A stretch of DNA of 61,617 nt, counting the filler, from Collodictyon triciliatum (taxonomy: Eukaryota): the NCBI GenBank assembly GCA_043381765.1. It is 5 parts of 5 records of this genome, joined end to end, with 100 filler letters (N's around TTAATTAATTAA, not from the genome) between each part and the next. Parts side by side here need not be neighbours in the genome. Positions count along the whole stretch, not along the records: positions 1 to 13,772 come from JBHJMP010001924.1; 4 more parts are not named here. One strand, given 5' to 3'. Below are positions 1-52,081 of the stretch, in pieces. The position numbers and the translations under genes are program-made. Positions within the stretch are counted from its first letter, which is position 1. The number at the start of each line of letters is the position of its first letter. The notes below the pieces were generated by a model. It was given only the letters and a program-made list of their open reading frames with translations, was not told the origin of the DNA and made no database searches.

Positions 1-3000
1 GCTGCTACAGCGAGAGACCTTGAAGGGCTGAAGCATCCTGGGCTGAATGTCTTTTTCCATTTTGTCGGATGCACCAATCTCAGCAACTACGTGGAAAGGT
101 TAATTCTATTTCTAATTCTTTTTTTATAGATATGATAAATACTTTGTTTTGGTTTTTCTAAAAAAAATTTTTTAGTGTGTCAATTCGCTTCTGGACTTTG
201 GTCGCAAACTCTGCCAACTTTGTCGAGGAAAAGAAGCAAGAAGCTGGTATTACAGTATTGTATTTTATTTTTATCTTTTAATTTAGTTTAAATGTCGCAT
301 AATTCTTCATGCATTTGCTTTATTTTGCCGCTAGAATACGAAAAAGAGGGACTCCAGGGCTTGCTGAAAATGATTCAGGAGAAAAACAAGTAAAATTTCA
401 ATTTTTATGTATTATTTAAATTATAAAATCGAAATTAAAATACATTGAATCGAATAAAAAAAATTGATATTAAACTATGTTTTATAGGGACGAGAAGTTT
501 GTCTTCCTCATCGATGCCATCAATCAAATCCACCCATCGCAAGGAACGCCAGCTCCGCATCTGCTGACCTGGTTGCCCAAAGAAACGCCAGCTAACGTTG
601 CCATGGTTGTGTCGACCATTCATACCCATGAATCTTGCACGGTATTCATCATTTAATATTATTTTTTGAATATTTTTTTTATTCTTCCTTTCAACTTTTG
701 TGCAGGACCGAGGGATTATTTTTTGAATATGTTTGTATTCTGCATAAAAATGATTTGAGTGGAACTTTAATTAATGTATCTATCATAAGTCTGCCAAACA
801 AAGTGGACTGGAGCCGATTCCTGTCGCCAAGTTGGCCGAGAGCGAAATTAAGGATGGTGTCGAAACATTCCTCATTCGCTATGACAAGACCCTGAACGAA
901 AAGCAAGTTGGAATGATTCTGGATGACCTGGAAGATACTGGTGAGATATTTTTTAAAAAGAGTATATATTTTGATTTAAGTTTTTATAAGGAATGATTTA
1001 GTTATTATTATCTGATATTTCTTATAGGCCATCCGCTCTATCTCCGCATCATTCTGGATGAGGTCAGGGTCTTTGGCGTCTATGAGAAGCTTGACGATGA
1101 ACTGAATACTCTGCTTTCAACCAATGGTGTCATTGAGCTTTACACTCTCATTATCAAGCGCTGGCAACTGAAGTTTGACAGGAAAGGTGAGTATTGATTG
1201 TACATATTTCACAAAAAAAAAGGTAAATTATAATTGCAAATTTTATTGAATACTTTTTTTATCGTACAGTCTCCTCTTCTGATGGAAAAGAGACAATGAA
1301 GGTCGAGTATGTCTCCCTCTCGATGAAGGTTCTCTTTGTTTCCCGCATCGGCCTGAGTGAAGGTGACTTGGACAAGCACATGAAAGATGCGATTGGCACA
1401 GGATTCGAGCTTGCTGAATGGTTTGCTTACTCTTCATTTTATAGAATTGAAAGGTTTATCATTCCCTTTATGTATTATATTTAACTTATTCTTTTATTCA
1501 TTCAAATAGGAAATCCTTTTTCTTTACCCTCATCGAGTCACTTTTCGTCCGCAATGGAAGGTTGGTGTCATTTCTCAATCTTTTTGTTCGTTAATCGGTG
1601 CTTTCGGTACAATTTTATTTGGACATAAAGCTAATAATTGTTTATCATAGATACATGTACTTCCACCAGCTGCTGTTAGAGACCACCAAAAAGGTCTACT
1701 TCTCCGAAAAGAAAGAGATGGAAAAAACGCACGAAAAATACGGAAAATGGCTCTTTGGCCAGTATTCTGAGGCTGCTGACGTGGATGAGGAGCTTGCTGC
1801 TGAGATATGCTACCAGCTTCTGAAGGGAAATTCGTTTGACTTGCTTGTCGAATACATGAAGCAAAAACATGTAATTTCTTAATTTTTATTTTTAATCGAT
1901 TATTCTATACATAATAAAACGACATTCACTGGTTAATTTTTAATATTTTAAGGTTATCAGCATTATGCTTGGTGGTCGCTATCGCTACGAGTTCTTTACA
2001 TGCTGGAGAGCAATCAACGCAAGCGGAGCGGCAAACTACAAAGAAGCCTATGGAAGCTTGGCGAAGGTAATTTATTATTTAATTTTAATTTTTTGAAAGT
2101 AACTACTAACAAATTTAATTATCAATCATGATTTATCTATTAATTATTTTTATAATTATTTGTTGTTTTTCAGTCTTTGGATAATGTGGGAGACCTGCTG
2201 GTTGGATTTTTCTTAGAGTCTTTTGAAAACTCGTTCTTGTTGTCTGTTCTGAATGTGCGTCTTGGAAAGCATCAGACAGAAGGCATGCAATTTATTATTG
2301 TCATTTTTGATGAATTTAAGTCATCAATATGAGTTATATATGGAGACATTTAATAATCTATCAATTTACAGATGCAAAGTCTGCTGATTACCTAAATCTT
2401 GGCCGTGTCTACAAGAACCTCCAAAAGTAAAAAAAACAAAAAATAAAATAATTATAAATAGGACATGAGATGATGATTAAAATGCAAGCTTTCTAAAATA
2501 AAAATCAATTAAACAGCTGGGCTGAGTCCATGGTCTACTATAAGAGATGTCTCGATTCAATTGAGAAAAATACAGATAATACCTTGCGTATTGCCACCAT
2601 TCATGAAGAGATGGGTATTATCTACCAGCAACAGGACAAGTAAGGCTCTCTTCATCGTAAATTAAATTATGAATAATGTTTCAAAAAGGAATTATTCTGA
2701 TTTTGCTTATTTAACAGGATTGATGAAGCTCTTGATGAATTTAAGAAATCACTGGACTTTAGAGTCGAACAACTGGGTGAGAATGACTTGCAAGTGGCCC
2801 AATCACATGACCGCTTCGGAGACATCTATTTGAAGCAGTCAAAGTAAAATTTAATCATTTATATTCGTTAACATTCTGCTTTTATTTTGTAAATATGTGC
2901 ATGCTGATCAATTTTTTATGATAGGAACGAGAAAGCTCTGGCTGAATACAAAAAGGCCATGGAAATCCGCCGAAAGAAAGTTGGAAATGAGCACCCTCTT

Positions 3001-6000
3001 GTCGCAACATCGTACCAGAACTATGGCCATGTCTCTCATGTTAATAAAAAGTTCGTTATTAATTATAAAATTAAATAAAACAATAATTTGAATAATTTCT
3101 CATGTTATAAGTAAAATTTCTATTTCATTAATTTTATAATTAAGATACCCGGAGGCCATCGATGACTATGAAAAAGCGAGATCGATTTTAGGAAAATATT
3201 TGGGCTGGAAGCATGCCTCTGTGGCTGTGATATTGTATTTGATTGCTGATGTCCACCTCAGCAGTGGCCAGTAAGAGTGTAAATATGTTGGAAATATATT
3301 TGTATGCAAATATATATCGGCTTACCGAAAAAATCTTTTGCAGAAACACGAAGGCGTTGTCCGATTTGAAAATTTGCCTCCGTACATATATTTCAGCACT
3401 CGGAGAAAATCACCCAAATGTCATAGTTTGCTACGAAAAAATTGGTGAAATCAACTATGAACTGAATAAGTGGGTTTTATCTGATTTAATCATTTATGTA
3501 ATTCATAATAATAATTCGAATGTCACTAGCCATTATTTTTAACTTATAGCCTAAAGGATTCTCTGGAATCTTTTACAAAAACATTGGAGATAAGAGAAAG
3601 AACTTTAGGAGAAAAACATCCTGATTATGCAAAATCCCTTGAGAATGTTGGCCGAACAAATTTTGAACTCCAAAGGTGCAATTTACTTAATATATTAAAA
3701 TTAGAATAAATTTTGATGATGTAGGGGAAGACCAATCATTGATCACTTATTTGAATGGATATAGATTTGATCAAGTTTCAGAGTATTTAGATAAAGCATC
3801 GATCATCAGAAAAGTATCAAAAACAGTATTATCTTTAACAGATAATTATCAAATTGATAAAATAATTGAATTGATGAAGGACAAGAAAGAGCATGAAGCC
3901 GTCATTCAGCTTTACAAAAGAGCTGCTGTTGGACATGGTGAAAAGTCATCCTATGAAAATTGGGACTGCTGGGTGGCTTGTGAGAATGTACACCAATACT
4001 GCAAAGAGAACAAGCTACATGAAAGTGGCGTGGCATTCTGGGCTGAGATGAGAGACAGATTCGCTGATAAACTGGGATGGATTCACCCCAGAACATTAAA
4101 TTCATGCGAATACTTGTCCGTTCATTCAAAGGAAATCGGAATCAACAAAGAACCTGTCGAGTTTACAAGGGTCAAGGAATTCATCTGTGAAACTCTTGAT
4201 GATGCAAAACTAGATGAGGAATGGAATCGTGAGCAAATTATCGCATCATTATTCAGAATTGTTTACATGTCGAAGACTGATGAAAGCAAATCAAAGGCTG
4301 CATCTGATGCAATCACACTTTTGAATTTCATGAATTTTTCGTTTGGTGGAATGGATTTATCAAACATCAAAATTCCACATGCAAATCTCAGTAACTCAAT
4401 CCTTGATGGTGCAAACTTCACTGGTGCCAACTTGGATGGTGTGCATTTGACAAACTCGATGTTTGGCCATTGTGTTTTTGATAATGCGCATATGAATAAT
4501 GTGAAATTCGGAATTCCTCATGATAAACTAGAAGGTCATACAGTTGATGTCAGGAGTGTTTGCAGTATTCAAGGACCGAATGGTGAATATTGGCTGGCTT
4601 CTGGAAGCGAAGATAAAACAATACGTATTTGGGATGTAGCCACAGGAAACCAAATCAAAATATTAGAAGGTCATACAAGTGCTGTCATCAGCGTTTGTAA
4701 TATTCAAGGACCGAATGGTGAAAATTGGCTGGCTTCTGGAAGTGATGACAACACAATACGCATTTGGGATGTATCCACAGGAAATCAAATCAACAAGTTA
4801 GAAGGTCATAGAAGTGATGTCAATAGTGTTTGCAGTATTCAAGGACCGAATGGTGAAAATTGGTTGGCTTCTGGAAGTGATGACAAAACAATACGCATTT
4901 GGGATGTATCCACGAGAAATCAAATCAACAAGTTAGAAGGTCATAGAAGTGATGTCAATAGTGTTTGCAGTATTCAAGGACCGAATGGTGAAAATTGGTT
5001 GGCTTCTGGGAGTAAAGATAAAACAATACGCATTTGGGATGTAGCCACAGGAAACCAAATCAAAACATTAGAAGGTCATACAGACTATGTCATTAGTGTT
5101 TGCAGTATTCAAGGACCGAACGGTGAAAATTGGTTGGCTTCTGGAAGCAGTGATAGGAGATTACGTATTTGGGATATATCCACAGGAAGCCATATCAAAA
5201 CATTAGAAGGACATACAGATACTGTTATGAGTGTTTGCAGTATTCTAGGACCGAATGGTGAAAATTGGTTGGCTTCTGGGAGTAAAGATAAAACAATACG
5301 TATTTGGGATGTATCCACAAGAAACCAAATCAAAATATTAAAAGGACATAGAAATACTGTCAATAGTGTTTGCAATATTCAAGGGCCGAATGGTGAAAAG
5401 TGGTTGGCTTCTGGAAGCAGTGATACAACAATGCGTATTTGGAGCTTTCCCTCCGAAGAGCATACTAGAAAATATAAATTATCCACTCTCATCTGTAACA
5501 GCATTTGCAATATTCAAGGACCGAACGGTGAAATATGGTTGGCTTCTGGAAGTGAAGATAACTCGATAATTATCTGGGATGTGACCACAAGTAATCAAGT
5601 AAAAAAATTGGAAAGAAATACGTGTAGGATAAACTCTATTTTTAGCATGCAAGGTCAAGATAGAGGATATTGGCTGGTCACTGGAGGTGATGATAATTAC
5701 ATACGTATTTGGGATGTAGGCAAAAGAAAAGAAATCAAAACCTTTCAAGGTCATACAAAGAAAGTCAACAGTGTTTGTAATATTCAAGGACCGAATGGTG
5801 AAAATTGGCTGGCTTCTGGAAGTAATGATAAAACAATACGTATTTGGGATGTAGCCACAGGAAATCAAATCAAAACTTTAGAAAACCATACAGATTGGAT
5901 TAGCAGTGTTTGCAGCATTCAACGACCGAATGGTGAAAATTGGTTGGCTTCTGGAAGTTTTGATAAAACAATACGCATCTGGGATGTGGCCACAGGAAAC

Positions 6001-9000
6001 CAAATCAAAACATTAGAAGGTCATACTGAGACTGTCACAAGTGTATGCAGTATTCAAGGACCGAATGGTGAAAGCTGGTTGGCTTCTGGAAGTGATGATA
6101 AAACAATACGTATTTGGGATGTAGCCACAGGAAACCAAATCAACAAGTTAGAAGGTCATACTGATGATGTCATGAGTGTTTGCAGTATTCAAGGACCGAA
6201 TGGTGAGAACTGGTTGGCTTCTGGAAGTGATGATAAAACAATACGTGTTTGGGATGTAGACACAGGAAACCAAATCAACAAGTTTGAAGGTCATACTGAT
6301 GATGTTACTAGTGTATGCAGTATTCAAGGACCGAATGGTGAGAACTGGTTGGCTTCTGGAAGTCTTGATAATACTATTCGTGTTTGGTATTCACTTGAAC
6401 TAATCCAAATTAAAACTGTTAATGTAATTGAATATAATTTTAAGACTTGGTGCAGAATTCGAGGACCGAATGGTGAAAATTGGCTGGCTTCTGGAAGTGA
6501 TGATAAAACAATACGTATTTGGGATATAACCACAAGAAGCCAAATCAAAATATTAGAAGGTCATACAGAATCTGTAAACAGTATTTGCAGTCTTCAAGGG
6601 CCGAATGGTGAAAATTGGTTGGCTTCTGGGAGTGTAGATAAATCAATACGAATTTGGAGTATAACCTCAGGAAATCAAATCAAAACATTAGAAGGTCATA
6701 TAGATGACGTGACCAGTTTATGCGAAGTCAAAGGGCCGAATGGCAACAATTGGTTGGCTTCTGGGGGCAATGATAGAACAATATATATTTGGGATTTGAG
6801 TACCAGTGCTGTGACTAAAATACCAAAGGCTCATTTAAGTGGATTGAAAGTCTTATGCAGTTTTCAAGGACCAAGTGGTGAAAAATGGCTGGCTTCTGGA
6901 AGTGGTGATGAAATAATATGCATTTGGGACGTAGCCACAGGAAATCAAATCAAAATATTAAAAGGTCATACAAGTTATGTGAACAGCATTTGCAGTATTC
7001 AAGGACCAGATGGTGAAAATTGGCTGGCCTCTGGGAGTAATGATAAAACAATACGTGTTTGGGATGTAGCCACAGGAAACCAAATCAAAACACTAGAAGG
7101 GCATACAAACTATGTCAGAAGCGTTTGCAGTATTCAAGGACTGAATGGTGAAAAATGGTTGGCTTCCGGGAGTTATGATAAAACAATACGTATTTGGGAT
7201 GTAGCCACAGGAAACCAAATCAAAAATTTTGAAGAGCACAGGGGTCGAATATACCAAGTCAGCAGTATTCAAGGACCGAATGGTGAAAATTGGCTGGCTT
7301 CCGGGAGTTATGATAATACAATAAGAATTTTGGATTTGTTTGGTACTAGCGAGATAGCAAAGTCGCATATATCCGAAAGAAAATTCAATGAAGATGAATT
7401 AATGCCAGCAGAATACAAAAGAGAAAACATCATCTTAGATGAAAAACTGGACTACAAAACTTTGCCCACATGTAGAGTCATCAATATGCAATCTATTGAT
7501 ATCTTGGGCGGTAAAAAGACCGACGAAAGGAACATAAGTGCAAAAAACATAATAGGATTAAGTCAATTCAATAAATATACTTTAATATCAATTGGTGGTG
7601 TGACCTTCGATGAAACATTTGTCACTTATTGCGAAAGGGGCAAGTTCACAATGTTTCAGGCTCAAATGATGGCTGCATGCTACGAATACGGTTGGGGTAT
7701 TGAGGAAAACAGTGAAAAGGTCAAATACTGGAAATTCACAGCCCCTTTTAAGTTAAATTTAGATTTTAGTGAATTGAAGCAACTAGCACAACAAGGTTCG
7801 AAGGAGGTATTTAATGCGATGAAAGAAATGGCTGAAATAACAGAGGGTAAGCATTACAAATATCCTCAAATTATTTCAATAGTTGCCGAATGTTTTGAAA
7901 ATGGGTGGGGAGTAAACAAAGATGCCGATGAAGCTGCTAAATTGTTTAGATTGGTTGATAACTTCGACGGCATTGCTAGACTAACTCAAAAAGGTTCAGC
8001 TTTATCATTTAAGATTTTGAAAGAAGTGGCTGAAACTAAGGATAAAGATATGTTTAAATATCCAAATGTTATTATAAAGGTCGCTGAATGTTATGAAAAT
8101 GGATGGGGTGTTGAACAGGATACACCATTATCTCTTATCTTCAGAATTAACCATAGTGATGGTGACGAGATTTTTCAGACACTTAGAGAGATGGTACAGA
8201 CTGGGTCTGCGGATGCATTTAAGGCATTAGAAGAAATAGCAAAGTCGGAAAGACACAATAAGTATCCTCAGGTTGTCTCAATAGTTGGTGAATGTTACGA
8301 AAATGGATGGGTAATTCACAAAGATCTTAAAAAAGCAACAGAATGCTTTGGAAAAGCAGAAAAATTCGAAAAACTAAAGCAATTGGCTCAACAGGGTTCA
8401 ATAGATGCATTCGAAGTCTTAAATAAAATTTCACAGACCAAAGAAGATATCAAACACCACATTCAAACGTTAAAAAAAATTGGTGAAAGGTACAAATATC
8501 CTGCGCTATTAAAATTTATTGCTCAATGCTATGAAAACGAATGGGGTGTCAAAAATGATGCTAGAGAGTGGTGCAAATGGTTAGGAATGGCAGAAAATTT
8601 TGAAAAACTGAAGATATTGGCTCAACAGGGTTCAAAAGACGCCTTTGAAGTCTTAAATAAAATGTCAGAGATGAAAGAAAATGTATATCATAAAGAGACA
8701 AGTTTAAGAATCGGTGAAAAGAACAAATATCCTCAAGCTGTTTCGATTGTCTCTCAATGTTACGAGAATGGTTGGAGCGTTGACATTGATAATATAGTGG
8801 ATTGGTGCACACTTAACAAAAATTTTCTAAAACTGACGCAGTTAGCGCAGCAAGGTTCAAGAAAGGCATTCGTCAAATTGAAAGAATTTTCAGAAAAGAA
8901 AAGAAATGTTCTGAAACACAAGACATTTGGAGAAAAGATCGGAGAAGAGCTAGTTTATCCACAAGTCGCTGGTCTTGTGATTGAGTGCTACGAAAATGGA

Positions 9001-9513
9001 TGGGGAGTTGGAATCGAAGATGTGGTTAATTGGTACGTACATACTGAAAATTATGAAAGTTTGAAGATATTGGCCCAAAAAGGTCATGTTGAGGCATTAA
9101 ATACTTTGTTGGACTTGGCAGAGTGTAAAGAACACGTTTTGGACCGTTGGGGAAGAAAAACTGGCGAGAGGTCAAAATATCCATCGGCGATTCATATTGT
9201 CATCGAATGCTATGAGAATGGATGGAGTGTAGAAAAGTGCCTCAGAAAAGTGTGCAATTGGAGAGGAAAAGCCGAGCAATTCGATGAACTAAAGAAATTG
9301 GCTCAGCAAGGTTTAACAGAAGCATTTGATGCTATTAAGTCGTTGGCGGAAATGAAGGAAGAAATCTTTAAGCACGGTAAAAGAACTGGAGATTTCAAAG
9401 TCAAATATCCAGCAAGTATTCTCATACTCGCAGAATGCTATGAAAATGGATGGGGAACAGTAGTAGACATTGAAAAGGCTGTGGAAATAAGGAAAAAATC
9501 TCCAGCCCAATAA
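1..9513 (+). CDS. NLR/STAND-like multidomain protein (NACHT - TPR - pentapeptide - WD40 x21 - SEL1-like x9), 5' end outside window
   Basis: Manual splicing gives one open frame over about 19 exons. NACHT motifs of the NPHP3/TEP1/NWD type: VFFHFVGC (49-72), Walker B FVFLIDAINQ...LTWLPKETPANVAMVVST (488-641) and GHPLYLRIILDEVRVFGVYEKL (940/1029-). TPR exons at 2517-3675 are followed by a final exon 3765-9513, the bulk of the 1924-aa ORF, ending in TAA. Walker A lies upstream of base 1. Confidence 0.9.
674..714 (-). mobile_element. Minimal LINE 3'-end insertion in an intron of the NACHT gene
   Basis: The minus strand reads CCTGCACAAAAGTTGAAAGGAAGAAT-poly(A). Perfect 16-bp TSD ATTATTTTTTGAATAT at 658-673 and 715-730. 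Confidence 0.75.
2517..3675 (+). other. Six TPR-encoding exons, one repeat per exon, all phase 2-2
   Basis: Exons 2517-2639 (123 nt), 2718-2843, 2925-3050, 3145-3270, 3344-3469 and 3550-3675 (126 nt each), all with GT-AG borders. Each encodes a 41-42 aa TPR of the kinesin-light-chain/TPR_10-12 type, e.g. NEKALAEYKKAMEIRRKKVGNEHPLVATSYQNYGHVSHVNKK. Confidence 0.9.
4250..4512 (+). other. Pentapeptide-repeat domain with preceding SK..AASDAITLL helix
   Basis: LFRIVYMSKTDESKSKAASDAITLLNFMNFSFGGMDLSNIKIPHANLSNSILDGANFTGANLDGVHLTNSMFGHCVFDNAHMNNVKFG shows A(N/D)LxxA-type pentapeptide periodicity. Confidence 0.85.
4525..7340 (+). repeat. Coding tandem array of 21 WD40 repeats, 135-nt (45-aa) unit
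   Basis: GAAGGTCATA recurs at 4531, 4666, 4801, 4936 (135-nt spacing). Consensus TLEGHTxxVxSVCSIQGPNGENWLASGSxDKTIRIWDVATGNQIK; 21 copies counted in the translation. Confidence 0.95.
7660..9500 (+). repeat. Nine expanded SEL1-like coding repeats
   Basis: Nine C(Y/F)ExGWxV-type motifs; from the second onward each is preceded by LAQQGS..AF..L and (K)YP, with variable-length spacers. Confidence 0.75.
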
Positions 9514-9978
9514 AGGTATATTAAATAGTGGTTATTAATAATAATTAGTAATGAAATCATCTTAATTTTCCATGTTTAAATAATTAGATGTGACTCCAAT
9601 TTTGATGCATCAGCCTAAGTGTTTTTATTTCACAAGGATTTCTAAGAATTCAGTAAAAAAAAAAAATAAATTTGCTTTTGCGCTGTACCCGATCAAGTTA
9701 TGGATTCCTTTTATGAATTTTTTTATATTTCATAAAAAGAAAAAAAAGGTTAATGAGCAACACTTGAAATCCGATTTTAGAGAATTATCACACTATGTGA
9801 ATAGATTTGCCACGCGTTGATAATAGGTATGGCGAATAATAAAAATATGTATTCTTGAACAATTATCAAAGGGAATGTATTGCAGTACTAATTGAGTGAA
9901 GTCGCGTAATTTACCTTCTAACACTGAAAAAAATTGGTCATCGAAAAATTGGGAGCCCAGGAGTTAAAGCTCTTGATA

Positions 9979-10985
9979 TTTTATTATTCTTTCAATTTTT
10001 TTTGCAGGATAGTGGAGATGTTGGCTTTGGTTCGCTAGCCATTGTTTGCATGGACGCTTCTTGGTGGCCGGGTGGCGGAGAAGTAGTCGGTAATCAGGAA
10101 CTACATCCTGCACTTTGGCCTGTAGCCTGGTCTTGTGCTTGCATGAGAGATACAAGGCGAGGTTTAATATCCTTCTCAGCCTCTTTCCACATGTATCTCT
10201 CACAGGGTCTGAGTAGTAGAGAACGTGCTGGTGGCGAAGGGAGCTATTGAGACAAGAGATTTGTATGATGTCATCCAGCCTGTTATCAGGAATGGGTGGC
10301 TGGTGCTTGAGTCTTGCTTTGCGTGAGTATATGCGCGCTATCCACATAGTCCATAGCAAATGGCCTCACGTCACTGCCCAGAATGTTTTTGCATCTGGAC
10401 GCAGCTGTTGCAGAGGCCCAAATATCGCCTGGATTGAGCCAACAGCCGCAGCCGTCTTGAGAGTCAGTCGAAGAATCTCTGGCTGTTTCGCGCAGGTTTT
10501 GAGCGAAGAGACATTGCACAAATGTGTGCTCAATGGATTCATCACCGTTGCTGCAAAGCGTGCATTGTTGGGAGACTTTGCCAGCTTATGCCGCGCGTGC
10601 GCCTATCCACAGCTCCCTATTGGTGATATTAAGCATTAGAGAGCGGTGATTTGGAAGGACTTGCGGGGTTCGTGCTTGTCTCCAGCTCGCGGTGACCGGG
10701 TGTGTGGGTGATGCCTAGTGTTTCTCCTCATCGTTGATGTTTTGACTTTTTGTAGGGTATCGGCGGCGATATTTTGTATCGAAAGAATTTGGAGTAGGCA
10801 TAGCCATCGAGAACTGCATAGACTGCGCATCGTTAGACGAGCGTTCGTTCTTGAGGCGGAAAAAGAATGGCGACGGGATGTCGTATGAGATTGGTCTGCG
10901 TGAGCGCCATTTTCCTTCGTTATTCAGGACGGCTGTGGTTGGCTGTGCATCTTGTGTGCGGAATGCGGTGGAGCCTGGCGTTGTG
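9979..10985 (-). mobile_element. Degenerate 3' portion of an L1/Tx1-type non-LTR retrotransposon (ORF2 C-terminus plus tail)
   Basis: GC-richer block. The minus strand encodes CTLCSNGDESIEHTFVQCLFA (10500-10564; CCHC zf-RVT motif) and, in a shifted frame, HLLWTMWIAR, with in-frame stops. It ends in ...CCTGCAAAAAAAATTGAAAGAATAATAAAAT, which matches dispersed short copies that have TSDs. The 5' boundary is approximate. Confidence 0.75.
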
Positions 10986-11426
10986 ATGTATGAGCCTTTC
11001 TGTTTGTGTAATATTAAAACTCAAAAATTCAAAAGATGACAAACAAGCCCTTGCCTTAGCCCAGACAGAACCCACCCATAAACCTTCCACCAAACATGCA
11101 TTTCAGAAAAGCATACTGTCCACACTTGTGGCGGTAATCATGTTGTTTGGAGCCAATATGTTGACTTTCAGTCGCAATGGCTATACGGCTTTCCTTTCGA
11201 ACTCCTGATTCGCCTCTCAGCGTTTCGTCTCAAATCACTTATAACAAAACTTTGTGTGTTTGTTTGCGTAATGCGCCCATTTTGAAAGTCTCGGTAGATG
11301 CTTAATTTTACATGAATTGATTTTGTGCAGTTATTTTTTTTAATTAAATTGACTGATTGACTAAAGTTTTATTAAATTGAAAACTCGGTTGTTTTCTAAA
11401 GAAAAATTAAAAACAAATACTTTCAC

Positions 11427-13436
11427 ATGAATAAAAGAAAACGTCTTCAGTCTGATAATTTAAAGTCTGTAAAACAAGACTATCGAAATGTAAAAACATA
11501 TCTAAGGCCGATTGTAAAGAATGCGGATGACTATGACAAAAATCAACGATACGGCTTTATTGTGTCATAACTTGGTTACCGACACTTATCTATTTGCAAG
11601 ATGTTACATATTGAAATCACAACCACTCCCAGCAACCGATGGAAAGTTTTTTTTGTACGCTTTAAAGGCAGTCATAATAGTTTCACAAGATAGACCCACA
11701 CGTTTAAAAAAAACCAGATATGAGAGACGACAAGATGACTTTTTATCCCAATGATTTTCGATTCCTTTTGTCCCGAGAAGAACGCTTTCTGTTCGTCGGA
11801 CTGTCTCATGTATTACCATACTTGGCGAGCCAAATGTTAGCAGCTTATCGTAATAACATCACGGAACATTTTGTAAAGAGGTTACTGCGCTTTATAAATC
11901 AATCAGTCACTAAACATGTGAATATTACGGAAGCTATTCAAAAGCCAGAGCTACGAAAGTTAAAAAAAGCCGTCTTCATGAATCTCGACATGCTGGAACA
12001 ATAAATGATGAGCTAAAACGCATTTGCATCATATCATCTCAGCGATATTGTAAATGGTATCGAATATGACTCAAAGTCAATCCAAATAAGTACATTCCAT
12101 GTCTGATTCGCATGAATAGCATTTTGGAGGACATTGAACCAAACAGTTTCAACCAATCCCTATAAAAACGAACAATATACCATCATGTCATATTACTCTA
12201 GATACTGCATGTTTGATAGATATATTAGTATCGCCTGGAAAACAATTATTACTGAAGAATATATCAGGATGCAAAGAGACCCTATGGGATAAGTTCTTTG
12301 AAATGAAGAAGAGGGTCTTTCATCAAAGATACTACAATTTAATATACATGATACAAGCAGACGGCTTGGTGGTGTCTTTATTGTTTGAAAAGAAAGGCAT
12401 TTCAAATTCAAGGTCCTATTTATAATTAAAAATCCAAGAACATGTTTTATATGAACTTTCCGAATAGCAGTTATCTTTATTAGCGACAAAAAAAAATAAT
12501 AGTTTGAGTGTACGCAGGCAAGATTAATTTGATTTACATGGTGGATGAGACAGGTACGAAATTACGTTACACGGCACACCAAACAAGACATGATAGCAAA
12601 TCTCTTAAAAATCACAAAATACTCTTGTGAGAAAAAAAGAAAAGTACGATGCTTAAGGGATATACATGGCAACAGGTTTACAGAGTGTTGTTTCTTTTGG
12701 TCACATGACTTTTGAAGAGAATCAGCGGTTTGGGACATCAAGAGTATCTTTAATCGATTTAGAGACAGAACTAAGTAAACAAAATTCATGCACGGTCGAT
12801 TATGAAAAATTCGAAAATATGTATCTATATATATGAAATAAAGATACCAGATAGAATTTTCCAGATTTTACGAAGCAAGCAACTTTTCGAAAGATGATAT
12901 GGAGTCTGTATGTTAATACAAAAAGAAGTGAAGTATTGTTTATGGAACGTATCGAAAAGACATTTGGCAAGGATGTTGTACTGGCGTATGGAGACTGGAG
13001 CAGAAAATGTCCGATGAACCTTTTCATGCCAACAATCGGAAGAGGATTACGAAAAATACTATCCAAACGTTTAGAAACAGTTATTGAAGATGAATTTAGA
13101 ACCTCCAAGATGTGTTGTAACTGCGAAAAGAAACTGGAATATATGAAACTGAAAGGAAATTAAAAAAAAGTTGCATATATATGTTTCATATGTAAAGAAT
13201 GCAATCGCTTAGAAAACAAACAAAAAATCGTATTCTTGACAATTGACTTTAACAGCGCTAAAAATATACTCAAGAAAGTTCTTCAAATTCTTCAAAAAAA
13301 ACATACATATCTCTCTAAAGAAATCAGGCTGTTATGTCTCACCTGGCAGCCTTCACCACTACACAATCTTTGTGAAAAAAATGGTGAGACCATGGAAACT
13401 GGCGCACCAAGTTTACCAATCGAAAGATTGGTATAA
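11427..13436 (+). pseudogene. Fanzor1-type (TnpB/Cas12-related) RNA-guided endonuclease pseudogene
   Basis: Frameshifted fragments in family order: MNKRKR start, KINDTALLCHNLVTDTYLFARCYIL, YLASQMLAAYRNNITEHFVKRLLRFIN, MIQADGLVVSLLF, degenerate RuvC-I IIV*VYAGK..IYMVDETG.KLRYTA (12496-), ETELSKQNSCTVDYEKF, IEKTFGKDVVLAYGDWSR..FMPTIGRGLRK, RuvC-II DEFRTSK (13089-), zinc finger CCNC...CKEC and RuvC-III TIDFNSAKNIL. No introns; several stops and frameshifts. Confidence 0.88.
12657..12749. mobile_element. 93-bp insertion with TTAA target-site duplication (possible Kolobok-type non-autonomous element)
   Basis: TTAA at 12653-12656 and 12750-12753. Removing the insert joins EKKK..Y to LIDLETELSK, as expected for Fanzor1. 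Termini are GG...CT, with weak inverted-repeat similarity and an internal GTCACATGAC near-palindrome. Confidence 0.5.
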
Positions 13437-13475
13437 CCCTTCCAGTATTTTATGAAAGTTTTTTTTATTCACGAC
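13321..13475 (+). ncRNA. Candidate Fanzor omegaRNA scaffold
   Basis: Overlaps the Fanzor 3' end. Stems: AGGCTG(13326-31)/CAGCCT(13347-52); GTCTCACC(13336-43)/GGTGAGAC(13383-90); CACAA/TTGTG; TACCAATC-GAAA-GATTGGTA (13414-33); TGGAA/TTCCA. Boundaries are inferred. Confidence 0.5.
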
Positions 13476-13772
13476 AGACTTAGCTGTTGGTGCCCATGCC
13501 AACAATCTTTTTTCCAACCACCAAGCAAGTATTCCGAGGTAAAAAGAAAGTAATGGCGGATGTGCCATCAGAGGAGTATGGAGATGGGGGATAGAGAAAG
13601 GAGAGAAAAGAGGATTAGGAGGAATAGGAAAGGGAGTAAAGACCCTGGGGCTTGATAAGAGGCCCAGGGATTCCTTTCAGGATAGAACTTGTGGTGAAGT
13701 CCTTGGGAGAGGGAAAGTAGCGGGCTTGATTATGTTTAGAAGGGAGCGGAAGAGGATGGGAATACTACTTTG

Positions 13773-13872
13773 NNNNNNNNNNNNNNNNNNNNNNNNNNNN
13801 NNNNNNNNNNNNNNNNTTAATTAATTAANNNNNNNNNNNNNNNNNNNNNNNNNNNNNNNNNNNNNNNNNNNN
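13773..13872. other. Artificial contig spacer (44N-TTAATTAATTAA-44N)
   Basis: Identical 100-bp structure occurs four times; the core gives stops in all six frames. Confidence 0.97.
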
Positions 13873-14340: not shown

Positions 14341-15851
14341 ATGGGTGTTTTCAGTGATACACGGTTGGAGGCGCATGAAGTCCTCGCCAAGAAGATACAT
14401 CAAAACTCATTTTATCCATTCACCCAAGTCGACCAGAATCGTGAGTAAATCCCGCCTACCTCTTTTTTCTTTCTCTTTTACTTAAATGTGTAACGTTGCT
14501 ATAGTATTTCCCTTTGTTTTTTCAATTTACTGCACAATTCGTTTTTCTTCCGTGTCCTATTTGAAAGGTTTTGTGTTGTGTAAGTCGAGAGACTTGCAAC
14601 AAAGGAGCAGTGAATATGCCTCATCCAACCAAAAATAAAGTGGAAGGAGACGTATAAAGACATATGTCCATTCTCCACTTAGAATTCCGGTATGTGATTC
14701 GATATACTCGCTATGTTGTTGGGATGTACGGCCTGGTTTTTAGCGTCGCATTCATCATCGTGATGATAGTTTTGGACTTGGTTGGGGCAGTGAGTCATTT
14801 ATTCTGTTAGGCATCACCCTTTCTCTGTGCTCTCTGCCTCTGATAAACAAATTGAAAAGAGTAGAGCGCAGAAGGAGGGAATAGTTGATCAGATATGAGT
14901 ATATTATCATCCATACTGTCGATTGGTGAATGCGTACATAACCCCTGTGCAGTTCTACTTTCTGTTTCCGATCGGCTCGTCCATCGCGTTTGTGATCCTG
15001 ATTTATCAATACAAAGACGTCCGAGAGTATGAATTGGACGGTGATAATCTCAGATATCGGTTCAAGCTGAAGTCCCTGACGATTGTGGAGGGGCATTACC
15101 ACAACGTTTATGTGCGACTTCGCCGCAAAGTTGGAGGTTTGTATACTCATATAAAAAATAAGTATATTACGTGATTTTGTATTGCTTATCGTGCACTTTT
15201 GTCAGTATCGACTAGCTATTAATTTATTTTCATTTCTTTTCTGTTTCTTTTCTGTTTCTTTTCTGTTTCTTTTCTGTTTCTTTTCTGTTTCTTTTCTGTT
15301 TCTTTTCTGTTTCTTTTCTGTTTCTTTTCTGTTTCTTCTCTGTTTCTTCTCTGTTTCTTTTCTGTTTATTAATATTCTCGTATGCAGCGTCGGGAACCTC
15401 CTATTATTACTTAATATTGAACGGCTACCAAATGGATAAAATAGTCTTGTCCGGCACGTCCACCAATATTGCTGTAAGTTTGGCCTCCTGAATCTTCAAA
15501 ATGTATCCAAATTTTTGTTCCATATAGTTAAATACTGATGCGTAGCACTTAATTATTTGTTGCATAGGGCATGAGAGAAATAGGACAAAAACTCGCTACA
15601 AACTTAAATATCAATTACTTTGATGAGGCCAATATTTCTCCCCATCGTACGGCTATAGTCTTATTTTCATCTGAATACTCGGCAATATGCTTTTCAATTA
15701 CCATTTGAAATTCTGTGGCGTGCGACATTTTCACCAGAAACGACATTGCATTTTAGACTTTTTCAATTCCTTCGGTATTTTCTTATCAATTCAATTGATG
15801 TTAGATGTTGTCAGACACCAAAGACCAAATGACAAGATTGTTGATGGATAA
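14341..15851 (+). CDS. TMEM249: TMEM249 / CatSper-theta-like two-TM protein (DUF4579 family)
   Basis: Exons 14341-14440, 14683-14789, 14953-15136, 15388-15473, 15568-15646 and 15805-15851 splice in frame. They give KKIHQNSFYPF, two hydrophobic helices, EGHYHNVYVRL, YYLILNGYQMDKIVL and GQKLATNLNINYFDEANISPHHVVRH, matching my recollection of TMEM249 (QGPLHLVYVRL ... ARKLNINYFD....RHVVRH). Confidence 0.8.
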
Positions 15852-15972
15852 GCAGGAGAATTCCGAATATCAGAAACATAACCACAGTCACCTCCATCTC
15901 TCTTCTTTTCCTCTCCTTTTATTCCAGTCATATCTCCAAATCTTAATAAAGATGTATTTACCTTCACCACTA

Positions 15973-16783
15973 CACATACATACATACATACATACATACA
16001 TACATACATACATACATACATACATACATACATACATACATACATACATACATACATACATACATACATACAGAAATACAGAAATACATACATACATACA
16101 GAAATACAGAAATACATAAATACATACATACAGAAATACATAAATACATACACACATACATACATACATACATACATACATACATACATACATACATACA
16201 TACATACATACATAAATACATACATACATACAGAAATACATAAATACATACATACAGAAATACATAAATACATACATACAGAAATACATACATACATACA
16301 TACATACAGAGGTACAGAAATACATACAGAAATACATACAGAAATACATAAATACATACATACAGAAATGCAGAAATACATACATACATAAATACATACA
16401 TACATACAGAAATACATACATACATACATACATACATACATACATACATACATACACACGCACATACATACATACATACATACATACATACATACACACG
16501 CACATACATACATACATACATACATACATACATACATACATACATACATACATACATACATACACACGCACATACATACATACATACATACAGAAATACA
16601 GAAATACATAAATACATACATACAGAAATACATAAATACATACACACATACATACATACATACAGAAATACATACAGAAATACATACAGAAATACATAAA
16701 TACATACACACAGAAATGCAGAAATACATACATACATACATACAGAAATACATACAGAAATACATACAGAGGTACAGAAATAC
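15973..16783. repeat. Compound (ACAT)n microsatellite with CAGAAATA/CATAAATA variants
   Basis: Direct reading, about 810 bp. Confidence 0.95.
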
Positions 16784-17183
16784 AAAAGTGTGTATGCTGT
16801 AGATGCAGTGACCATCCTACTTCTTCCCTAATCCACATATATCCGATCTTAACGACTTCCTATTACGGAATTCAGCAGATTTTCTCGCTGATTCGGCTCA
16901 CCACCCAACGACTTGTGATTCATCTGATTACATCACACGCACGGCTCTTTGAGCGGCGGAAGTGAACATCAAAGAAGCGAGACTTGAGCAAATGAGGAGG
17001 CCTTTTTCGATCGCTCACACAGAGTTTTTGCCATGAGACACATTTATATAAAGGGGAAGACAATAATGCGATTGTGTATATGAAAGCAGATCAACGAAAC
17101 AGCCCCGCGTGGTAAACCCGCCGCCTGCCTTTAGAAGGAGAACTCAACCCGCGAAGGAAAAGAAAAAGAGAAAGCAGTCCAAC

Positions 17184-20100
17184 ATGAGTTACTCACAAAA
17201 AAGCTTGAAAACGCTGCACAACCAAAGCGACTCAACAAGTGACGACTATGACGATCACGACGAAGGTTTGTGCGAATTCAATATGCCTCCCTGAAAAATG
17301 AGTTATGATAATGGTTAAGGAGTACCCCACAAACAGTCCTTTTCTGCTACTAATTTTTAGTGAGATCAAACTCACATGATGGTGACTCTGTCTCGGAAGA
17401 AGTTAGAACCCCGAAAGGAGCGGTAACTGATCCTCTTTTTCCTTTTTTCTTTTTTCCTTTTTCCTTTTTCCTTTTTCCTTTTTCCTTTTTCCTTTTTCCT
17501 TTTTCCTTTTTCCTTTTTCCTTTTTCCTTTTTCTTTCTTTGGTTTTCTTCTTTCCTTTTCTTTTCTTCTCTTCTTTCCTTCTCTTCTCTTCTTTCCTTTT
17601 CTTCTTTCCTTTTCTTCTTTCCTTTTCTTCTCTTCTTTCCTTTTCTTCTTTTCTTTTCTTCTTTTCTTTTCTTCTTTTCTTTTCTTCTTTTCTTTTCTTC
17701 TTTTCTTTTCTTCTTTTCTTTTCCTGTTCCTTTATCTTATTTCTCTTTTTCTTTTTTTTACTTCTTTTACTTTCTTTCACTTTCTTTTACTTTCTTTTAC
17801 TTTCTTTTACTTTCTTTTACTTTCTTTTACTTTCTTTTACTTTCTTTGGTTCTCTATATATTTCTGCATTAGTCTGTCATGTACTTTCCGTATACGACCT
17901 TATTATTTGGGGGAATGATTCAAGGCCTAATGAACGAATGCTGACTTCTGATAGACTCAGGGATCGATTGCAAAGCTGAAAGGAAATGATGGGCGTGGCC
18001 AAGGAAACTCAATGTCCAGCTTTGACGAGGTTCGGAGTCACGACGGAAACCAGGTGCACGGAAACTCCAGTATGAGCCTCGATCAAGTGAGTCGACAACG
18101 ATGCCATGTTTTTTTGTTTGTTCTTTGTTTTTATCACTTAACAACTTAAATATATTAATTATCGGCTTATCGTCCCTCCTTTGATTATTTTTAATACCGG
18201 CTGTTCGATTTTATCCCATCAGAGCAGCTCTAAAGGACGAGCTAGTCAAGGAAAGTCTGGTGCAGCTCCGCATTGGGCAAACGAGTCCGTCGACGATAAG
18301 TTTTTCGAGAATACAGAAGATGTTAGTTGTTAAACTCATCGTTTGTTTCTTTGTCTGTTTGAATTCAGAGTTACGGTCTTTTATGAATTTGCAGTGGTGA
18401 TTGATACTTAAGGGTCCGTTTGAACGGTGCGTTATTTTATATATGTTTTATGTTGTCATTTACGTTTTGCTATCTCTCTGGGCTATTTGCAATCGCAGCC
18501 ATCAAAGAATGCTGCAGATAAACTGGATTTCATCTTTGGTGATGACGATGTGGATTTCAACTTCGTGGCTGACTTCAGTAAACTCCTTTCGGTGGTTCGC
18601 TTTCTACTTCATACAGTGCGGAAACAATCGAAAATACTCAAGGAGATAGAAGCAACCGTAATACATCACACACATCAAATTATTATGAATAGAGCTTTCC
18701 TAAGCACGCACAGCTCTCTGTTACTTGTTTATTTTCTTTCATCCTTTAAGTCAGCTATTATGCTAAAACAAAAGGTCGACAACCACTCTATTCATGTGGA
18801 CAAACTCATGTCTATCAGTCTGTTGGGTACAGTTACTCAGGCTGATTTGAATCGAGTAATGGTTCTTCCAAATGGAAGGACAATCAGAGACACAGTGCTA
18901 TCGCACAATGAAGATTTGACACGTACCATGGAGATTGTCGCTGGTATAACGACATATGCCCATTTCTCTTCTTTTTTTTATCAGCACTGTTTTATTTTGC
19001 ATTCTAATAATTCATGAACTAATCACAATGCTAAAATTTATGTGTATGGGAAACTGTAAATATCTTTATGTCCTCATTTTATTTTAGATCATTCTGGGAG
19101 AGTCGCTAGCCTCGAGGAAGAAGTTCCTCAAAAAGCTGAGCGTGAAACTACTGTGAACATTCTTCACTTTGAGAATTTGAACAAGGTTTTTTTTTCTGTC
19201 TTCGAATATATATATATATATATATCTGCGTATGCCTTTTGCCATGTCAGATAATAAAATACATATTAAATGTATATTTTGGCCTTGCCTTGTTTTGCGT
19301 GGACTACAGGACTACCGAGAGTCCAAAGAGCTCCTGTATAGCATCAGTTCCGAAATGGTACAGATTAGGACACTGGCCGCTACACCGCAAGCAAAAGATG
19401 ATTTCTGTCGCCAGAAAGTCGAGGAAATCCAGGACGCAATATCTAAATTCGATGAGACTGTGACGAACAAGCTTGACAAAAGAGAATACACTCATTTCCT
19501 GGACGGAATGATGAGGAAACAGAGGGAATCAGATGCCACGTACCGTTTTTTTTTTCTTTTTCTTTTTTTCATATTCAATTCATATTACCCACTTTTTTAC
19601 ATTATTTAATGATGTTTATGGCGATGATCTTTGACTAAATTGGCATGTATATGGTTCATGTAGTAGTGACAAAAATGAAAATGGAGGCAATGGAAAAGTA
19701 GGAACCAAAGAAAACGGTAAACTAGAGGAAAAAATAAAATGCATCATCACATAATCATTCGCCTGTTGCAATCTCATTCTCAGAGTAACCTATGTTCCTT
19801 AATTGAATCTAACGGTGCAGAGACTACAGTTGATCCTAGTGTGAATCCACTGCTATATGGATTGATGTAATATCCAATCAAATATTCAAAATATTCATTT
19901 TTATTGGGTGTGTATGACTGGCCATCTTCTTACCATCTACATGTTTTAGTCACAAGAGCCAGGCTGATGCAGGATTTACATCGGCTATTAAAAACTTAAC
20001 TGGTAGCTTATAAATCACTTACCAATTAATTCATCTCTTCCATTGTTAATTACATTCATCGAGGAAGAAAATTGATGTAGGACTTAATAGTAGCAACTCT

Positions 20101-22354: not shown

Positions 22355-22673
22355 AGAAAGAATAATATTGGGTTCGACAATGTGTGTCTTTTGATTTGTT
22401 TTGTATTGGTTTTTTCATGTTTTGGTTTGGTTGTATGTGGGACTTTGAAATTAGAATGATTGCGGAACATCGGGTTTCGATGAATGACACTATGGAGAAT
22501 ATAATTTGTGTGTAGTCCAAAATGAGCTGGATGTATAAAAGTGTAGCTGGTTGCTGACTTCATCAGGGACTGTTTTCGGGTATTCAATCTCCATTGCTCT
22601 TCACTACTTGCTTTCCTCTTCTCCACTTCACTTCGCTCCACTTCATATTATTAATTGTTTTCCCGTGTAATAC

Positions 22674-22785
<112 letters not shown>

Positions 22786-22865
22786 AGTTTTCTGTGTCAT
22801 TCGTTCTTTTTTTTTTCTTTCTTTCTTATCCTGTTCATCAGCCGAGATTCCGTCTGGATTGCACT

Positions 22866-26410: not shown

Positions 26411-27485
26411 GTGAGCCGAGATAGAGAGAAACCTGAGCAGCATCTCCTGGCTGTGCCAGAAGTTCCTTTTCCTCTTCCAACAACGCCTCTCTTTCAAAGT
26501 CTGTGCAGAGAACACTCTGAAGAACCGTATCGTCATCACCATCGACCTGTTGCGCGGAGAAAGTTAGGGGGATTAAAAGAAAGAAAGAGGAAAGACCAAC
26601 CATCGCCCAATTACATCATATCATACAAAATCACATCATATCATATTCAAATCCACTGGCACACCCAAGATAAGATAAAGATGGACAAGAGAGAAAAGGG
26701 AGGGGACAAAAGCAGACCTCCTGCTCGATGTGGAGGATCTGCAGGTTCTTTGGGATGCCCGGGAACTCCTTTGCAGCGATGTGCTTGAGCAGGGTGGTCT
26801 TTCCGATGCCGTTGCGGCCGACAAGGCCATACTTGCGGCCGTAGACAAGGGTGAAGTTTGCATCGTGGAGCAGCTGCAGGCCGCCGAGGGCCATGCTGAT
26901 GTTTGTGAAGACGACGTCGCGCATGGCGCCATCGGGCTCGCGCGAGTGGACGACCATGGGGACGTTGCGCAGACGGTCGAGGATTGCGCTGCGCTCCTGC
27001 GCGTCCTCCTTCTGCTGCCGCGTCGTGCGCTTCTCAACCTTGAGCAGCCGCTTCTCGCGCTTGAGCCGCGCACGCAGCGAGCCGTCCTCCAGGTCGCCCT
27101 CGTCCGAGGCCACCACGGCCGCCCCGCCCATCGGCCCGTTGAAGTTGACCGTGGCCTTGAGCGATGCCCGCACGAGACTCTCCACCACACGCTCCTCCTC
27201 CCGCAGCACACGCGCAAGCAGCACCGGTGCCCCGAGCACATCGGCCGCCTCGCCTCTGCCCTGGCCTTTGCCCGCCTCCTTGCCTTTGTCTCGCAACCGC
27301 CCCAGCAGCTCCCGTCCAAGCTGCGCCCCGGCGGCTTCGCTCGCTACAAGCCCGCTCCCTGCAAGCAGCGCCCCGACGCCCTCTGCAATCTCCGCCTCGC
27401 TCGCGCTCTCGTCTTCTAGGAGCGAGCTCACGTACTCGGCAAGGTCGGCATCCTCGGCCACTCCTGGTAGGGCCTGCTTCAGCAG
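22866..27485 (-). CDS. ABCF3: ABC-F subfamily ATPase, ABCF3/GCN20-like; first exon lost at contig end
   Basis: Two ABC domains and no TM segments: [60 protein letters not shown] and [13 protein letters not shown]. The N-terminal extension contains [11 protein letters not shown]. Confidence 0.9.
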
Positions 27486-27634
27486 CTGTGCGGGCGTGTT
27501 TGTTTGTGTGTGTGTCAGGGGGGGGGTCTTTTTCTTTTTTCTTTTTCTTTTTCTTTTTTCTTTTTCTTTTTTCTTTTTCTTTTTTCTTTTTCTTTTTCTT
27601 TTTCTTTTTTCTTTTTCTTTTTCTTTTTTCTTTT

Positions 27635-27734
27635 NNNNNNNNNNNNNNNNNNNNNNNNNNNNNNNNNNNNNNNNNNNNTTAATTAATTAANNNNNNNNNN
27701 NNNNNNNNNNNNNNNNNNNNNNNNNNNNNNNNNN
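27635..27734. other. Artificial contig spacer
   Basis: Same 100-bp structure; ABCF3 is truncated here. Confidence 0.97.
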
Positions 27735-28011
27735 GAAAAAGAAAAAGAAAAAGAAAAAGAAAAAGAAAAAGAAAAAGAAAAAGAAAAAGAAAAAGAAAAA
27801 GAAAAAGAAAAAGAAAAGAAAAAGAAAAAGAAAAGAAGAAAAAGAAAAAGAAAAAGAAAAGAAAAAGAAAAAGAAAAAAAGAAAAAGAAAAAGAAAAAAG
27901 AAAAAAGAAAGAGACAAAGACAAAGAAAAAGAGAAAGCGGAATAAAAAAAAATCTTCGGATTCGTATTGGTCGGTTACTTATAACGACGTCTCATTCACA
28001 ACCAACAGGCT

Positions 28012-38125: not shown

Positions 38126-38225
38126 NNNNNNNNNNNNNNNNNNNNNNNNNNNNNNNNNNNNNNNNNNNNTTAATTAATTAANNNNNNNNNNNNNNNNNNN
38201 NNNNNNNNNNNNNNNNNNNNNNNNN
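38126..38225. other. Artificial contig spacer
   Basis: Same structure; the RECQL4 5' half does not continue across it. Confidence 0.97.
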
Positions 38226-38242
38226 TCTTTCTTCTTTCTTTC

Positions 38243-38361
38243 TTGATTGTTGATTGTTGATTGTTGATTGTTGATTGTTGATTGTTGATTGTTGATTGTT
38301 GATTGTTGATTGTTGATTGTTGATTGTTGATTGTTGATTGTTGATTGTTGATTGTTGATTG
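38243..38361. repeat. (TTGATTG)n heptamer repeat
   Basis: Direct reading. Confidence 0.95.
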
Positions 38362-38408
38362 TAATTGCTTTTTACTCCCTGATTTTGAAAATATAACTGC
38401 CCTGCAGG

Positions 38409-50980: not shown

Positions 50981-51526
50981 GCGAACCCTAGGGGCCGAGC
51001 CGTGATGGTTGCAGAAGGACGGTGCGGTGGTCGTGAGGGCTGCGGGATCTCTGACTGGGAAGATGACTTGAGGATTCTCTATGGGAAAAAAAAAAAAGAA
51101 ATGAACAGCGTCGCAGTTGTCAGGCTCTGTGTATTTGGTTTTCTAGATCAGCCAAGGACAATAATAAAATAGAAAGCAACCAAGTTGCGCGTTCTTGGGG
51201 GCTTTTGCGATCGCGTCGGGCTCGAGAGGGGAGGAGTTTTCAGTGGTGAAGAGCAGAACAACACAAGAATTAATTGGAGATGAATAGATCGCAATTCGTG
51301 GTAACTCAGGGTTAAAAACAAGGCAGCCAGCAGGTGAAAGTGCGGTTTCAAGTTTTGAGAGATCATCGGCTCAAGCGTGGCCTGCATAAAGCTGATGCGT
51401 TTTGTATGCTCTTTGTAAACTTGGCTGTGTGGTTACGCCCCCATTTAAGGCATATTCAGAAAGGGAAGGATTTTATTTCAAGTGCTTCAATTCCCAAACC
51501 ATGATTCTGCCGTATGTCTTCCGTTA

Positions 51527-51981
51527 TGGATTTCCTTGGATTTCTTTGGATTTCCTTGGATTTCTTTGGATTTCTTTGGATTTCTTTGGATTTCTTTGGA
51601 TTTCTTTGGATTTCTTTGGATTTCTTTGGATTTCTTTGGATTTCTTTCATTTCTTTGGATTTCTTTGGATTTTTTTGGATTTCTTTGGATTTTTTTGGAT
51701 TTCTTTGGATTTCTTTGGATTTCCTTGGATTTCTTTCCTTTCTTTCCTTTCTTTCCTTTCTTTCCTTTCTTTCATTTCTTTCATTTCTTTCATCTCTTTG
51801 GATTTCTTTCATTTCTTTGGATTTCTTTCATTTTTCATTTTTCATTTTTCATTTTTCATTTTTCATTTTTCATTTTTCATTTTTCATTTTTCATTTTTCA
51901 TTTTTCATTTTTCATTTTTCATTTTTCATTTTTCATTTTTCATTTTTCATTTTTCATTTTTCATTTTTCATTTTTCATTTT
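51527..51981. repeat. (GGATTTCTTT)n followed by (TTTTTCA)n
   Basis: Direct reading. Confidence 0.95.
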
Positions 51982-52081
51982 NNNNNNNNNNNNNNNNNNN
52001 NNNNNNNNNNNNNNNNNNNNNNNNNTTAATTAATTAANNNNNNNNNNNNNNNNNNNNNNNNNNNNNNNNNNNNNNNNNNNN
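51982..52081. other. Artificial contig spacer
   Basis: Same structure. Confidence 0.97.

Follow-up and report, generated by a model that had tools for sequence, protein, structure and literature searches.

Six symmetric TPR exons in a STAND NTPase gene of Collodictyon triciliatum as the probable footprint of an ancient exon-plus-intron duplication

A 61,617-nucleotide stretch of Collodictyon triciliatum DNA (assembly GCA_043381765.1), hereafter referred to in its entirety as the window, and of which positions 1 to 13,772 correspond to record JBHJMP010001924.1, opens within a gene for a large STAND NTPase whose TPR arm is encoded by a series of six strikingly uniform exons. These six exons are considered, with a probability of roughly 0.75, to represent the frozen footprint of an ancient tandem duplication in which an exon was copied together with its intron. 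According to this reading, the ancestral module would have been a single 42-residue TPR period of the kinesin-light-chain (KLC) type, cut between its helices A and B and equipped with a phase-2 intron, and serial tandem duplication of this module would have generated a seven-TPR solenoid before the gene family diversified. The number, order and length of the units would then have been fixed since the radiation of the family, and the symmetric layout of 126-nucleotide, phase 2-2 exons would be a by-product of this duplication history rather than a generator of diversity. That the intron formed part of the duplicated module is something we infer on grounds of parsimony.

The borders of the TPR exons were defined by a scripted scan for AG...GT intervals with an open frame, by the printed borders and by a full gene model (Table 1). 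All six exons (6/6) are preceded by AG and followed by GT, and are in phase 2 at both ends. The seven introns that separate and flank them are consecutive phase-2 introns of 73-94 nucleotides with a GC content of 0.13-0.29, and retention of any one of these would introduce an in-frame stop. The gene's 11 other introns, in contrast, are of mixed phases (2,1,2,0,1,1,2,2,0,0,1), and a run of seven phase-2 introns is expected by chance, on phase alone, at (4/11)^7 = 8e-4; on account of these two observations the six-exon symmetric pattern is real and chance is excluded as its source.

The register of the exons relative to the protein repeat is equally regular. Searched singly, five of the six exons match the Pfam family TPR_12 (19.6-30.1 bits, E 5e-7 to 1e-3, at a cut-off of 30.1), and in each of these five, residue 1-2 of the exon coincides with model position 19-20, while the 123-nucleotide exon alone gave no Pfam match. 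The encoded units measure 41, 42, 42, 42, 42 and 42 residues, in register with those of the homologues described below, and the period of 42 residues is that of the KLC/nephrocystin-3 type of TPR. In every unit the intron falls at an equivalent site that separates helix A from helix B, such that each exon encodes helix B of one TPR, a linker, and helix A of the next TPR. An exon is consequently not one TPR motif, and the seven TPRs are assembled from eight exons, extending from 2372-2426 through the start of 3765-9513. The window array shares its 42-residue period and a G-x-x-H-P linker motif with the KLC and nephrocystin-3 TPRs (TPR_12, TPR_10, TPR_NPHP3), although these families are defined by repeat type alone and membership says nothing on exon structure.

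A sequence-only reading of this DNA had described five exons of 126 nucleotides and one of 123, all phase 2-2 and cut at the same point of the repeat, and the border scan, the gene model and the TPR_12 register agree on precisely this layout. Its further statement that any exon could be dropped or doubled without a frameshift is likewise borne out, all six being phase 2-2 and of a length divisible by three. Its description of the array as one TPR per exon applies to the 42-residue period, but does not hold as anatomy, given the helix B-linker-helix A content of each exon.

The fixity of the array emerges from comparison with its relatives. All full homologues found derive from one EukProt transcriptome, that of Diphylleia rotans, where they form an unannotated family (P0001, P0002, P0067, P0090, P0121, P0123 and P0138), and share with the window gene their architecture, their colinearity (the window gene being colinear with residues 667-2615 of P0001 by tblastn), a seven-TPR arm with positional orthology and the domain that follows it; this family differs from the window gene in being known as transcripts only, and in being 24-43% identical to it over the array. 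Alignment of the window array to those of P0090, P0001, P0067, P0121, P0138 and P0002 produced 0, 0, 1, 5, 3 and 1 gapped columns, respectively, where P0002 begins in unit 2, while P0123 stops after unit 1. The units follow one and the same order in each of the six array-bearing D. rotans homologues (6/6). Furthermore, units 2-6 are 42 residues long in every protein possessing them, with unit 1 measuring 41, 41, 41, 41, 42 or 44 residues.

Between proteins, units that share a position have an identity of 34.0% (n=114), compared to 21.2% for units at other positions (n=570) and 21.9% for units within one protein (n=96), and a positional difference this large arose in 0 of 2000 label permutations. 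In 37 of 40 cases a unit has as its nearest relative its positional counterpart in another protein, and in no case (0/40) a unit of its own protein. Inside the window protein, mean unit-to-unit residue identity amounts to 23.6%.

At the nucleotide level, the TPR exons are 43-55% identical to each other, as compared to 50.3 +/- 3.2% for shuffled exons, and the introns are 44-58% identical to each other, as compared to 52.9 +/- 3.7% for shuffled introns. Exons and introns alike are thus at a chance level of likeness, which points to an old duplication. Consistent with this, Tandem Repeats Finder reported no tandem repeat between positions 2300 and 3800, though it did report the WD40 array further downstream. 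A hidden Markov model (HMM) of the unit was also run against 1503 six-frame fragments covering the 61.6 kb of the window, and this recovered the six exons only (E <= 1e-14), the next match having an E-value of 1.1, so that no spare or pseudo TPR exon was found in this stretch. The introns, at their length of 73-94 nucleotides, are too short to hide an exon of 126 nucleotides.

A sequence from a Logan contig, P0239, is 73% identical to window positions 3787-4830. Its called frame starts in the wrong frame in the end of TPR exon 6, runs through approximately 25-35 codons of intron-like sequence, and then enters the last exon; this close genomic relative thus seems, as judged from its sequence, to possess an intron at the same place.

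Transcript evidence consisted of assembled RNA contigs from four runs with 90-99% likeness to the window, a type of data from which rare isoforms are dropped, and 15 of 39 splice joints were examined. Contigs bridge ten introns with canonical ends upstream in the gene, intron-less contigs spanning 99-175, 247-334, 390-487, 642-789, 1421-1509, 1561-1650, 1871-1952, 2067-2173, 2283-2371 (GC-AG) and 2427-2516. The junction 2426|2517 is bridged exactly in three runs, while the contigs across junctions 2639|2718 and 2843|2925 carry a few substitutions and are therefore assigned to close relatives or paralogues. The region 3088-3822, which takes in TPR exons 4-6 and the beginning of the last exon, has almost no cover at a likeness of at least 90% in the four runs and is usable neither for nor against splicing variation; for the last three TPR exons, the borders are supported by the sequence itself and by the gapless alignment to transcript-derived homologues. 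Loose contig ends at 3035/3037 and 3874 continue into homologous, more diverged sequence. In runs X1 and X2, single sites across window positions 1-4400 are covered by as many as 8-10 distinct RNA contigs of 90-99% identity, which suggests that several very close paralogues or alleles are expressed in these samples. Two joints with non-canonical ends, 1413->1528 and 1595->1733, are most simply explained as pieces of diverged paralogues, and a reading as antisense splicing was not adopted. Each of 21 sequencing runs contains only 0.05-0.07 of the sampled words, and nothing was drawn from these with regard to habitat or strain.

The alternative that survives best, though it is improbable, is that the array is older than its introns: it would originally have been intron-less, as in bacterial NACHT-TPR genes, and would later have gained introns in parallel at equivalent sites, for example at a favoured motif. 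The conserved NTPase exon (ending at 1186) matches 24 metagenomic loci, which are uninterrupted bacterial-type NACHT genes or short matches, and the exon structure of the window was found in none of these 24 NACHT loci; the related genes are single uninterrupted matches, including one, L011, that bears TPRs. The 5' part of the window gene is, moreover, intron-dense, with 18 introns in 3.8 kb and internal exons of 51-220 nucleotides (exons 2-12, and likewise exons 2-18, in the gene model), and the codons at the phase-2 junctions are all A-rich (AA|C, AA|G, AA|G, AA|A, CA|A, AA|C and AG|A). Parallel gain must nevertheless account for seven of seven introns sharing both their phase and their position in the 126-nucleotide period, and six further independent strikes of this kind are very unlikely. 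The introns are also not alike and give no sign of a mobile 'introner'.

A still less probable explanation, and the one which the sequence-only reading had proposed, is that of an active system in which exon shuffling or alternative splicing would supply combinatorial sensor diversity. Its appeal lies in the fact that every combination of the six exons remains in frame, in the expression of several close variants of the gene in X1 and X2, and in precedents from brown algae. For example, as reported by Zambounis et al. 2012 (PMC3341825), 13 Ectocarpus NB-ARC-TPR genes have TPR exons of 126 nucleotides and 42 residues, which bears out the Ectocarpus parallel of the sequence-only reading; these genes resemble the window gene in combining a STAND NTPase with a TPR arm that has one 42-residue period per frame-keeping 126-nucleotide exon. 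The case for shuffling in Ectocarpus is built on inactivated TPR exons in introns, on TPR domains that are unalignable between paralogues, and on an exon synonymous divergence (dS) below 2 (PMC3341825). Unlike what is described there, no pseudo-exons were found in the window, hardly any gaps are needed to align the arrays, and the exons resemble each other no more than expected by chance; the NTPase, as judged by homologue P0123, is furthermore of the NACHT/nSTAND1 type rather than NB-ARC, with pentapeptide and WD40 repeats after the TPR arm. Similarly, brown-algal ROCO genes encode one LRR per 72-bp phase-2 exon and yield splice variants with different exon sets, according to Teng et al. 2024 (PMC11378527). 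These resemble the window gene as putative immune receptors whose repeat exons are symmetric and of phase 2, whereas the window repeats are TPRs rather than LRRs, and no splice variants were seen among the joints examined.

The data from the window gene and its relatives speak against such a system. The sequence-only reading had named in advance a fixed number and order of exons across paralogues among the marks of an old tandem duplication, and number and order are indeed fixed, at the protein level, in the six D. rotans homologues; by that reading's own yardstick, this outcome tells against active shuffling. The constancy of unit length, the positional orthology across these homologues and the window, the lack of spare exons in the window and the chance-level likeness of exons and introns all point in the same direction. 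Skipping of a TPR exon was encountered in none of the 15 joints examined out of 39, a weak test in view of the loss of rare forms from contigs and the scant cover of TPR exons 4-6. In addition, two recorded isoform proteins of one Diphylleia Trinity gene, P0001 and P0238, are both 2619 residues long, align without gaps and have identical TPR arrays. What does stand from the earlier proposal is that the TPR arm follows a STAND NTPase, which in homologue P0123 scores 27.4 bits for NACHT, above the cut-off of 26.7, and 32.0 bits for nSTAND1, above that of 27.1. A search of the literature returned no study of a Diphylleia NACHT, one unrelated paper apart, and on the shuffling of symmetric TPR exons with NACHT it returned only papers on fungal NLRs and one hop-gene paper.

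An artefact, whether through a faulty gene model, a pseudogene or a pattern arisen by chance, is barely conceivable. The last three TPR exons have borders without direct RNA support, and no exon taken alone exceeds the Pfam cut-off, but the 19 exons join into one open frame of 2629 codons, every intron holds an in-frame stop, the array aligns gaplessly to transcript-derived proteins, spliced contigs confirm ten upstream introns and three TPR-exon junctions, and the array of homologue P0001 reaches Pfam scores of 136.5 bits (TPR_12) and 85.3 bits (TPR_10).

Several points weigh against the duplication of an exon-plus-intron module and its subsequent freezing. The Diphylleia paralogues are available as transcripts only, so that co-duplication of exon and intron is a matter of parsimony and not of observation, and these homologues, with their identity of 24-43% across the array, bear on deep time and not on recent turnover. 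The contigs in X1 and X2, up to 8-10 at a site, imply close paralogues or alleles that lie outside the comparison of exon content. RNA contigs drop rare isoforms, with 15 of the 39 joints having been examined, and the survey of TPR exons was confined to the 61.6-kb window.

It is unlikely that the frozen array additionally functions as a length switch based on exon choice, or that the 126-nucleotide module shared with the brown-algal NB-ARC-TPR genes is an ancient eukaryotic one instead of convergent. In the former case, regulated skipping of a single exon or a change in copy number among close paralogues would yield TPR arms of 5-7 repeats, and arms of such differing lengths would set the NTPase and the WD40 sensor at another distance and twist from each other, thereby providing a STAND receptor with a length-tuning switch.

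Table 1. Positions of the STAND NTPase gene and its component features in the window.
Feature	Position	Strand	Remarks
STAND NTPase-TPR-pentapeptide-WD40 gene, in-window part	1..9513	+	19 exons, 2629-codon open frame, stop 9511-9513
STAND NTPase (probably NACHT/nSTAND1-type), exons 1-5	1..940	+	starts just after Walker A; Walker-B-like FVFLIDA inside
Intron 11, GC-AG border	2283..2371	+	donor GC; joint 2280->2370, movable by 2, in X1 and X9
Exon 12, helix A of first TPR	2372..2426	+	55 nucleotides, phase 1 to 2; joint 2426->2517 GT..AG in X1, X2, X9
TPR exon 1 (exon 13)	2517..2639	+	123 nucleotides, phase 2-2, 41-residue unit; unit HMM E 1e-14 (by construction)
TPR exon 2 (exon 14)	2718..2843	+	126 nucleotides, phase 2-2; TPR_12 E 3.5e-4, model positions 20-58
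TPR exon 3 (exon 15)	2925..3050	+	126 nucleotides, phase 2-2; TPR_12 E 1.6e-6
TPR exon 4 (exon 16)	3145..3270	+	126 nucleotides, phase 2-2; TPR_12 E 6.3e-5
TPR exon 5 (exon 17)	3344..3469	+	126 nucleotides, phase 2-2; TPR_12 E 1.1e-3
TPR exon 6 (exon 18)	3550..3675	+	126 nucleotides, phase 2-2; TPR_12 E 5.4e-7, 30.1 bits
Phase-2 introns, seven in a row	2427-2516, 2640-2717, 2844-2924, 3051-3144, 3271-3343, 3470-3549, 3676-3764	+	
Start of last exon	3765..4326	+	helix B of seventh TPR, then family-specific helical domain; homologue alignment
Pentapeptide-repeat segment	4327..4509	+	Pfam Pentapeptide E 1.4e-10; Pentapeptide_4 residues 188-248 of window 3766-4560
Self-similar WD40 array	4529..7335	+	135-nucleotide unit x 20.8 copies, 77% matches (Tandem Repeats Finder), within one exon

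The protein to which the TPR arm belongs is a large STAND NTPase, in which N-terminal CH and DUF4062 domains (present in the homologues, e.g., P0123) are followed by an NTPase apparently of the NACHT/nSTAND1 type, the TPR arm, a helical domain, a pentapeptide beta-helix and approximately 40 WD40 repeats. The gene is truncated at the 5' end of the window, and the Walker A motif falls outside it: the first residue encoded by the window corresponds to residue 749 of P0123, in which GIGKSS (Walker A) lies at approximately 743-752 and the Pfam NACHT match covers residues 735-903. Single NTPase exons of the window returned no Pfam match, and these exons are 62-76% identical to those of the homologues.

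The helical domain that follows the TPR arm (window 3890-4330) belongs to no Pfam family and is present in two copies in P0002. In a HMMER search of 1.84 billion representative proteins with this domain (query residues 1-150), only P0002, P0001 and P0090, all from D. rotans, and a short fragment, P0247, were matched, and no further full-length relatives beyond Diphylleia were found among these representatives. A search of the ESM Atlas returned a best score of 0.79, to cyanobacterial TPR-pentapeptide clusters, which is regarded as a lead only.

The helical domain, the pentapeptide segment and the WD40 region all reside within one exon of 5.7 kb, for which Pfam WD40 scores 575 bits, and more diverged WD40 repeats continue after position 7335 to approximately 9.5 kb. 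Among the units of the self-similar array the scaffold (GPNGENWLASGS.DKTIRIWDV.TGNQIK) hardly varies, and differences are concentrated in the five residues after LEGH and in the variable residue between GS and D of GS-x-D. On the evidence of these self-similar units, the WD40 array of the last exon is apparently where repeat turnover is recent. Fungal NLRs of the NACHT-WD40 type (the HET-E/NWD family) have internally highly conserved WD40 repeats; the window gene resembles these in joining an NTPase of probable NACHT type to a long self-similar WD40 array, and HET-E-like proteins are present among its WD40 matches. It differs from the HET-E/NWD proteins in having a TPR arm and pentapeptide repeats between NTPase and WD40. 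The WD40 array is a better candidate than the TPR arm for a fast-evolving sensor. By analogy with STAND and NLR proteins at large, the TPR arm may serve as a fixed-length spacer or an autoinhibitory arm connecting the NTPase to a C-terminal sensor, with the self-similar WD40 array as the putative variable, ligand-facing part.

The window as a whole is AT-rich (GC approximately 0.33-0.38), with short AT-rich introns. Among 12 other long frames of the window, Pfam identified only a fragment of ABC_tran and a weak 7tm_7 match, neither of which has a bearing on the TPR array. The ABC_tran match is short (E 5e-8, model positions 1-35) and lies on the minus strand at 26634-27686, beside low-complexity sequence; this frame probably represents part of an adjacent ABC transporter gene, namely one of its exons. 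Long pyrimidine-rich microsatellites with a period of 8-14 nucleotides occupy 15200-16900, 17400-17900, 22600-22800, 27500-27950, 38200-38400 and 51500-52000. Pairs of 44-N runs placed 12 nucleotides apart, representing the filler between joined parts, adjoin microsatellites at 27635, 38126 and 51982, and do not at 13773.

The TPR arm of this gene is probably a clear-cut and datable case in which a repeat domain arose through the duplication of exons along with their introns, in a little-studied protist whose gene has Diphylleia rotans transcripts as its only database relatives. One and the same exon layout of 126 nucleotides per TPR can be dynamic, as in brown algae, or wholly static, as in this gene, and symmetric repeat exons alone are no evidence of combinatorial immunity. 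For the biology of this STAND protein, the focus should accordingly shift to the self-similar WD40 array.

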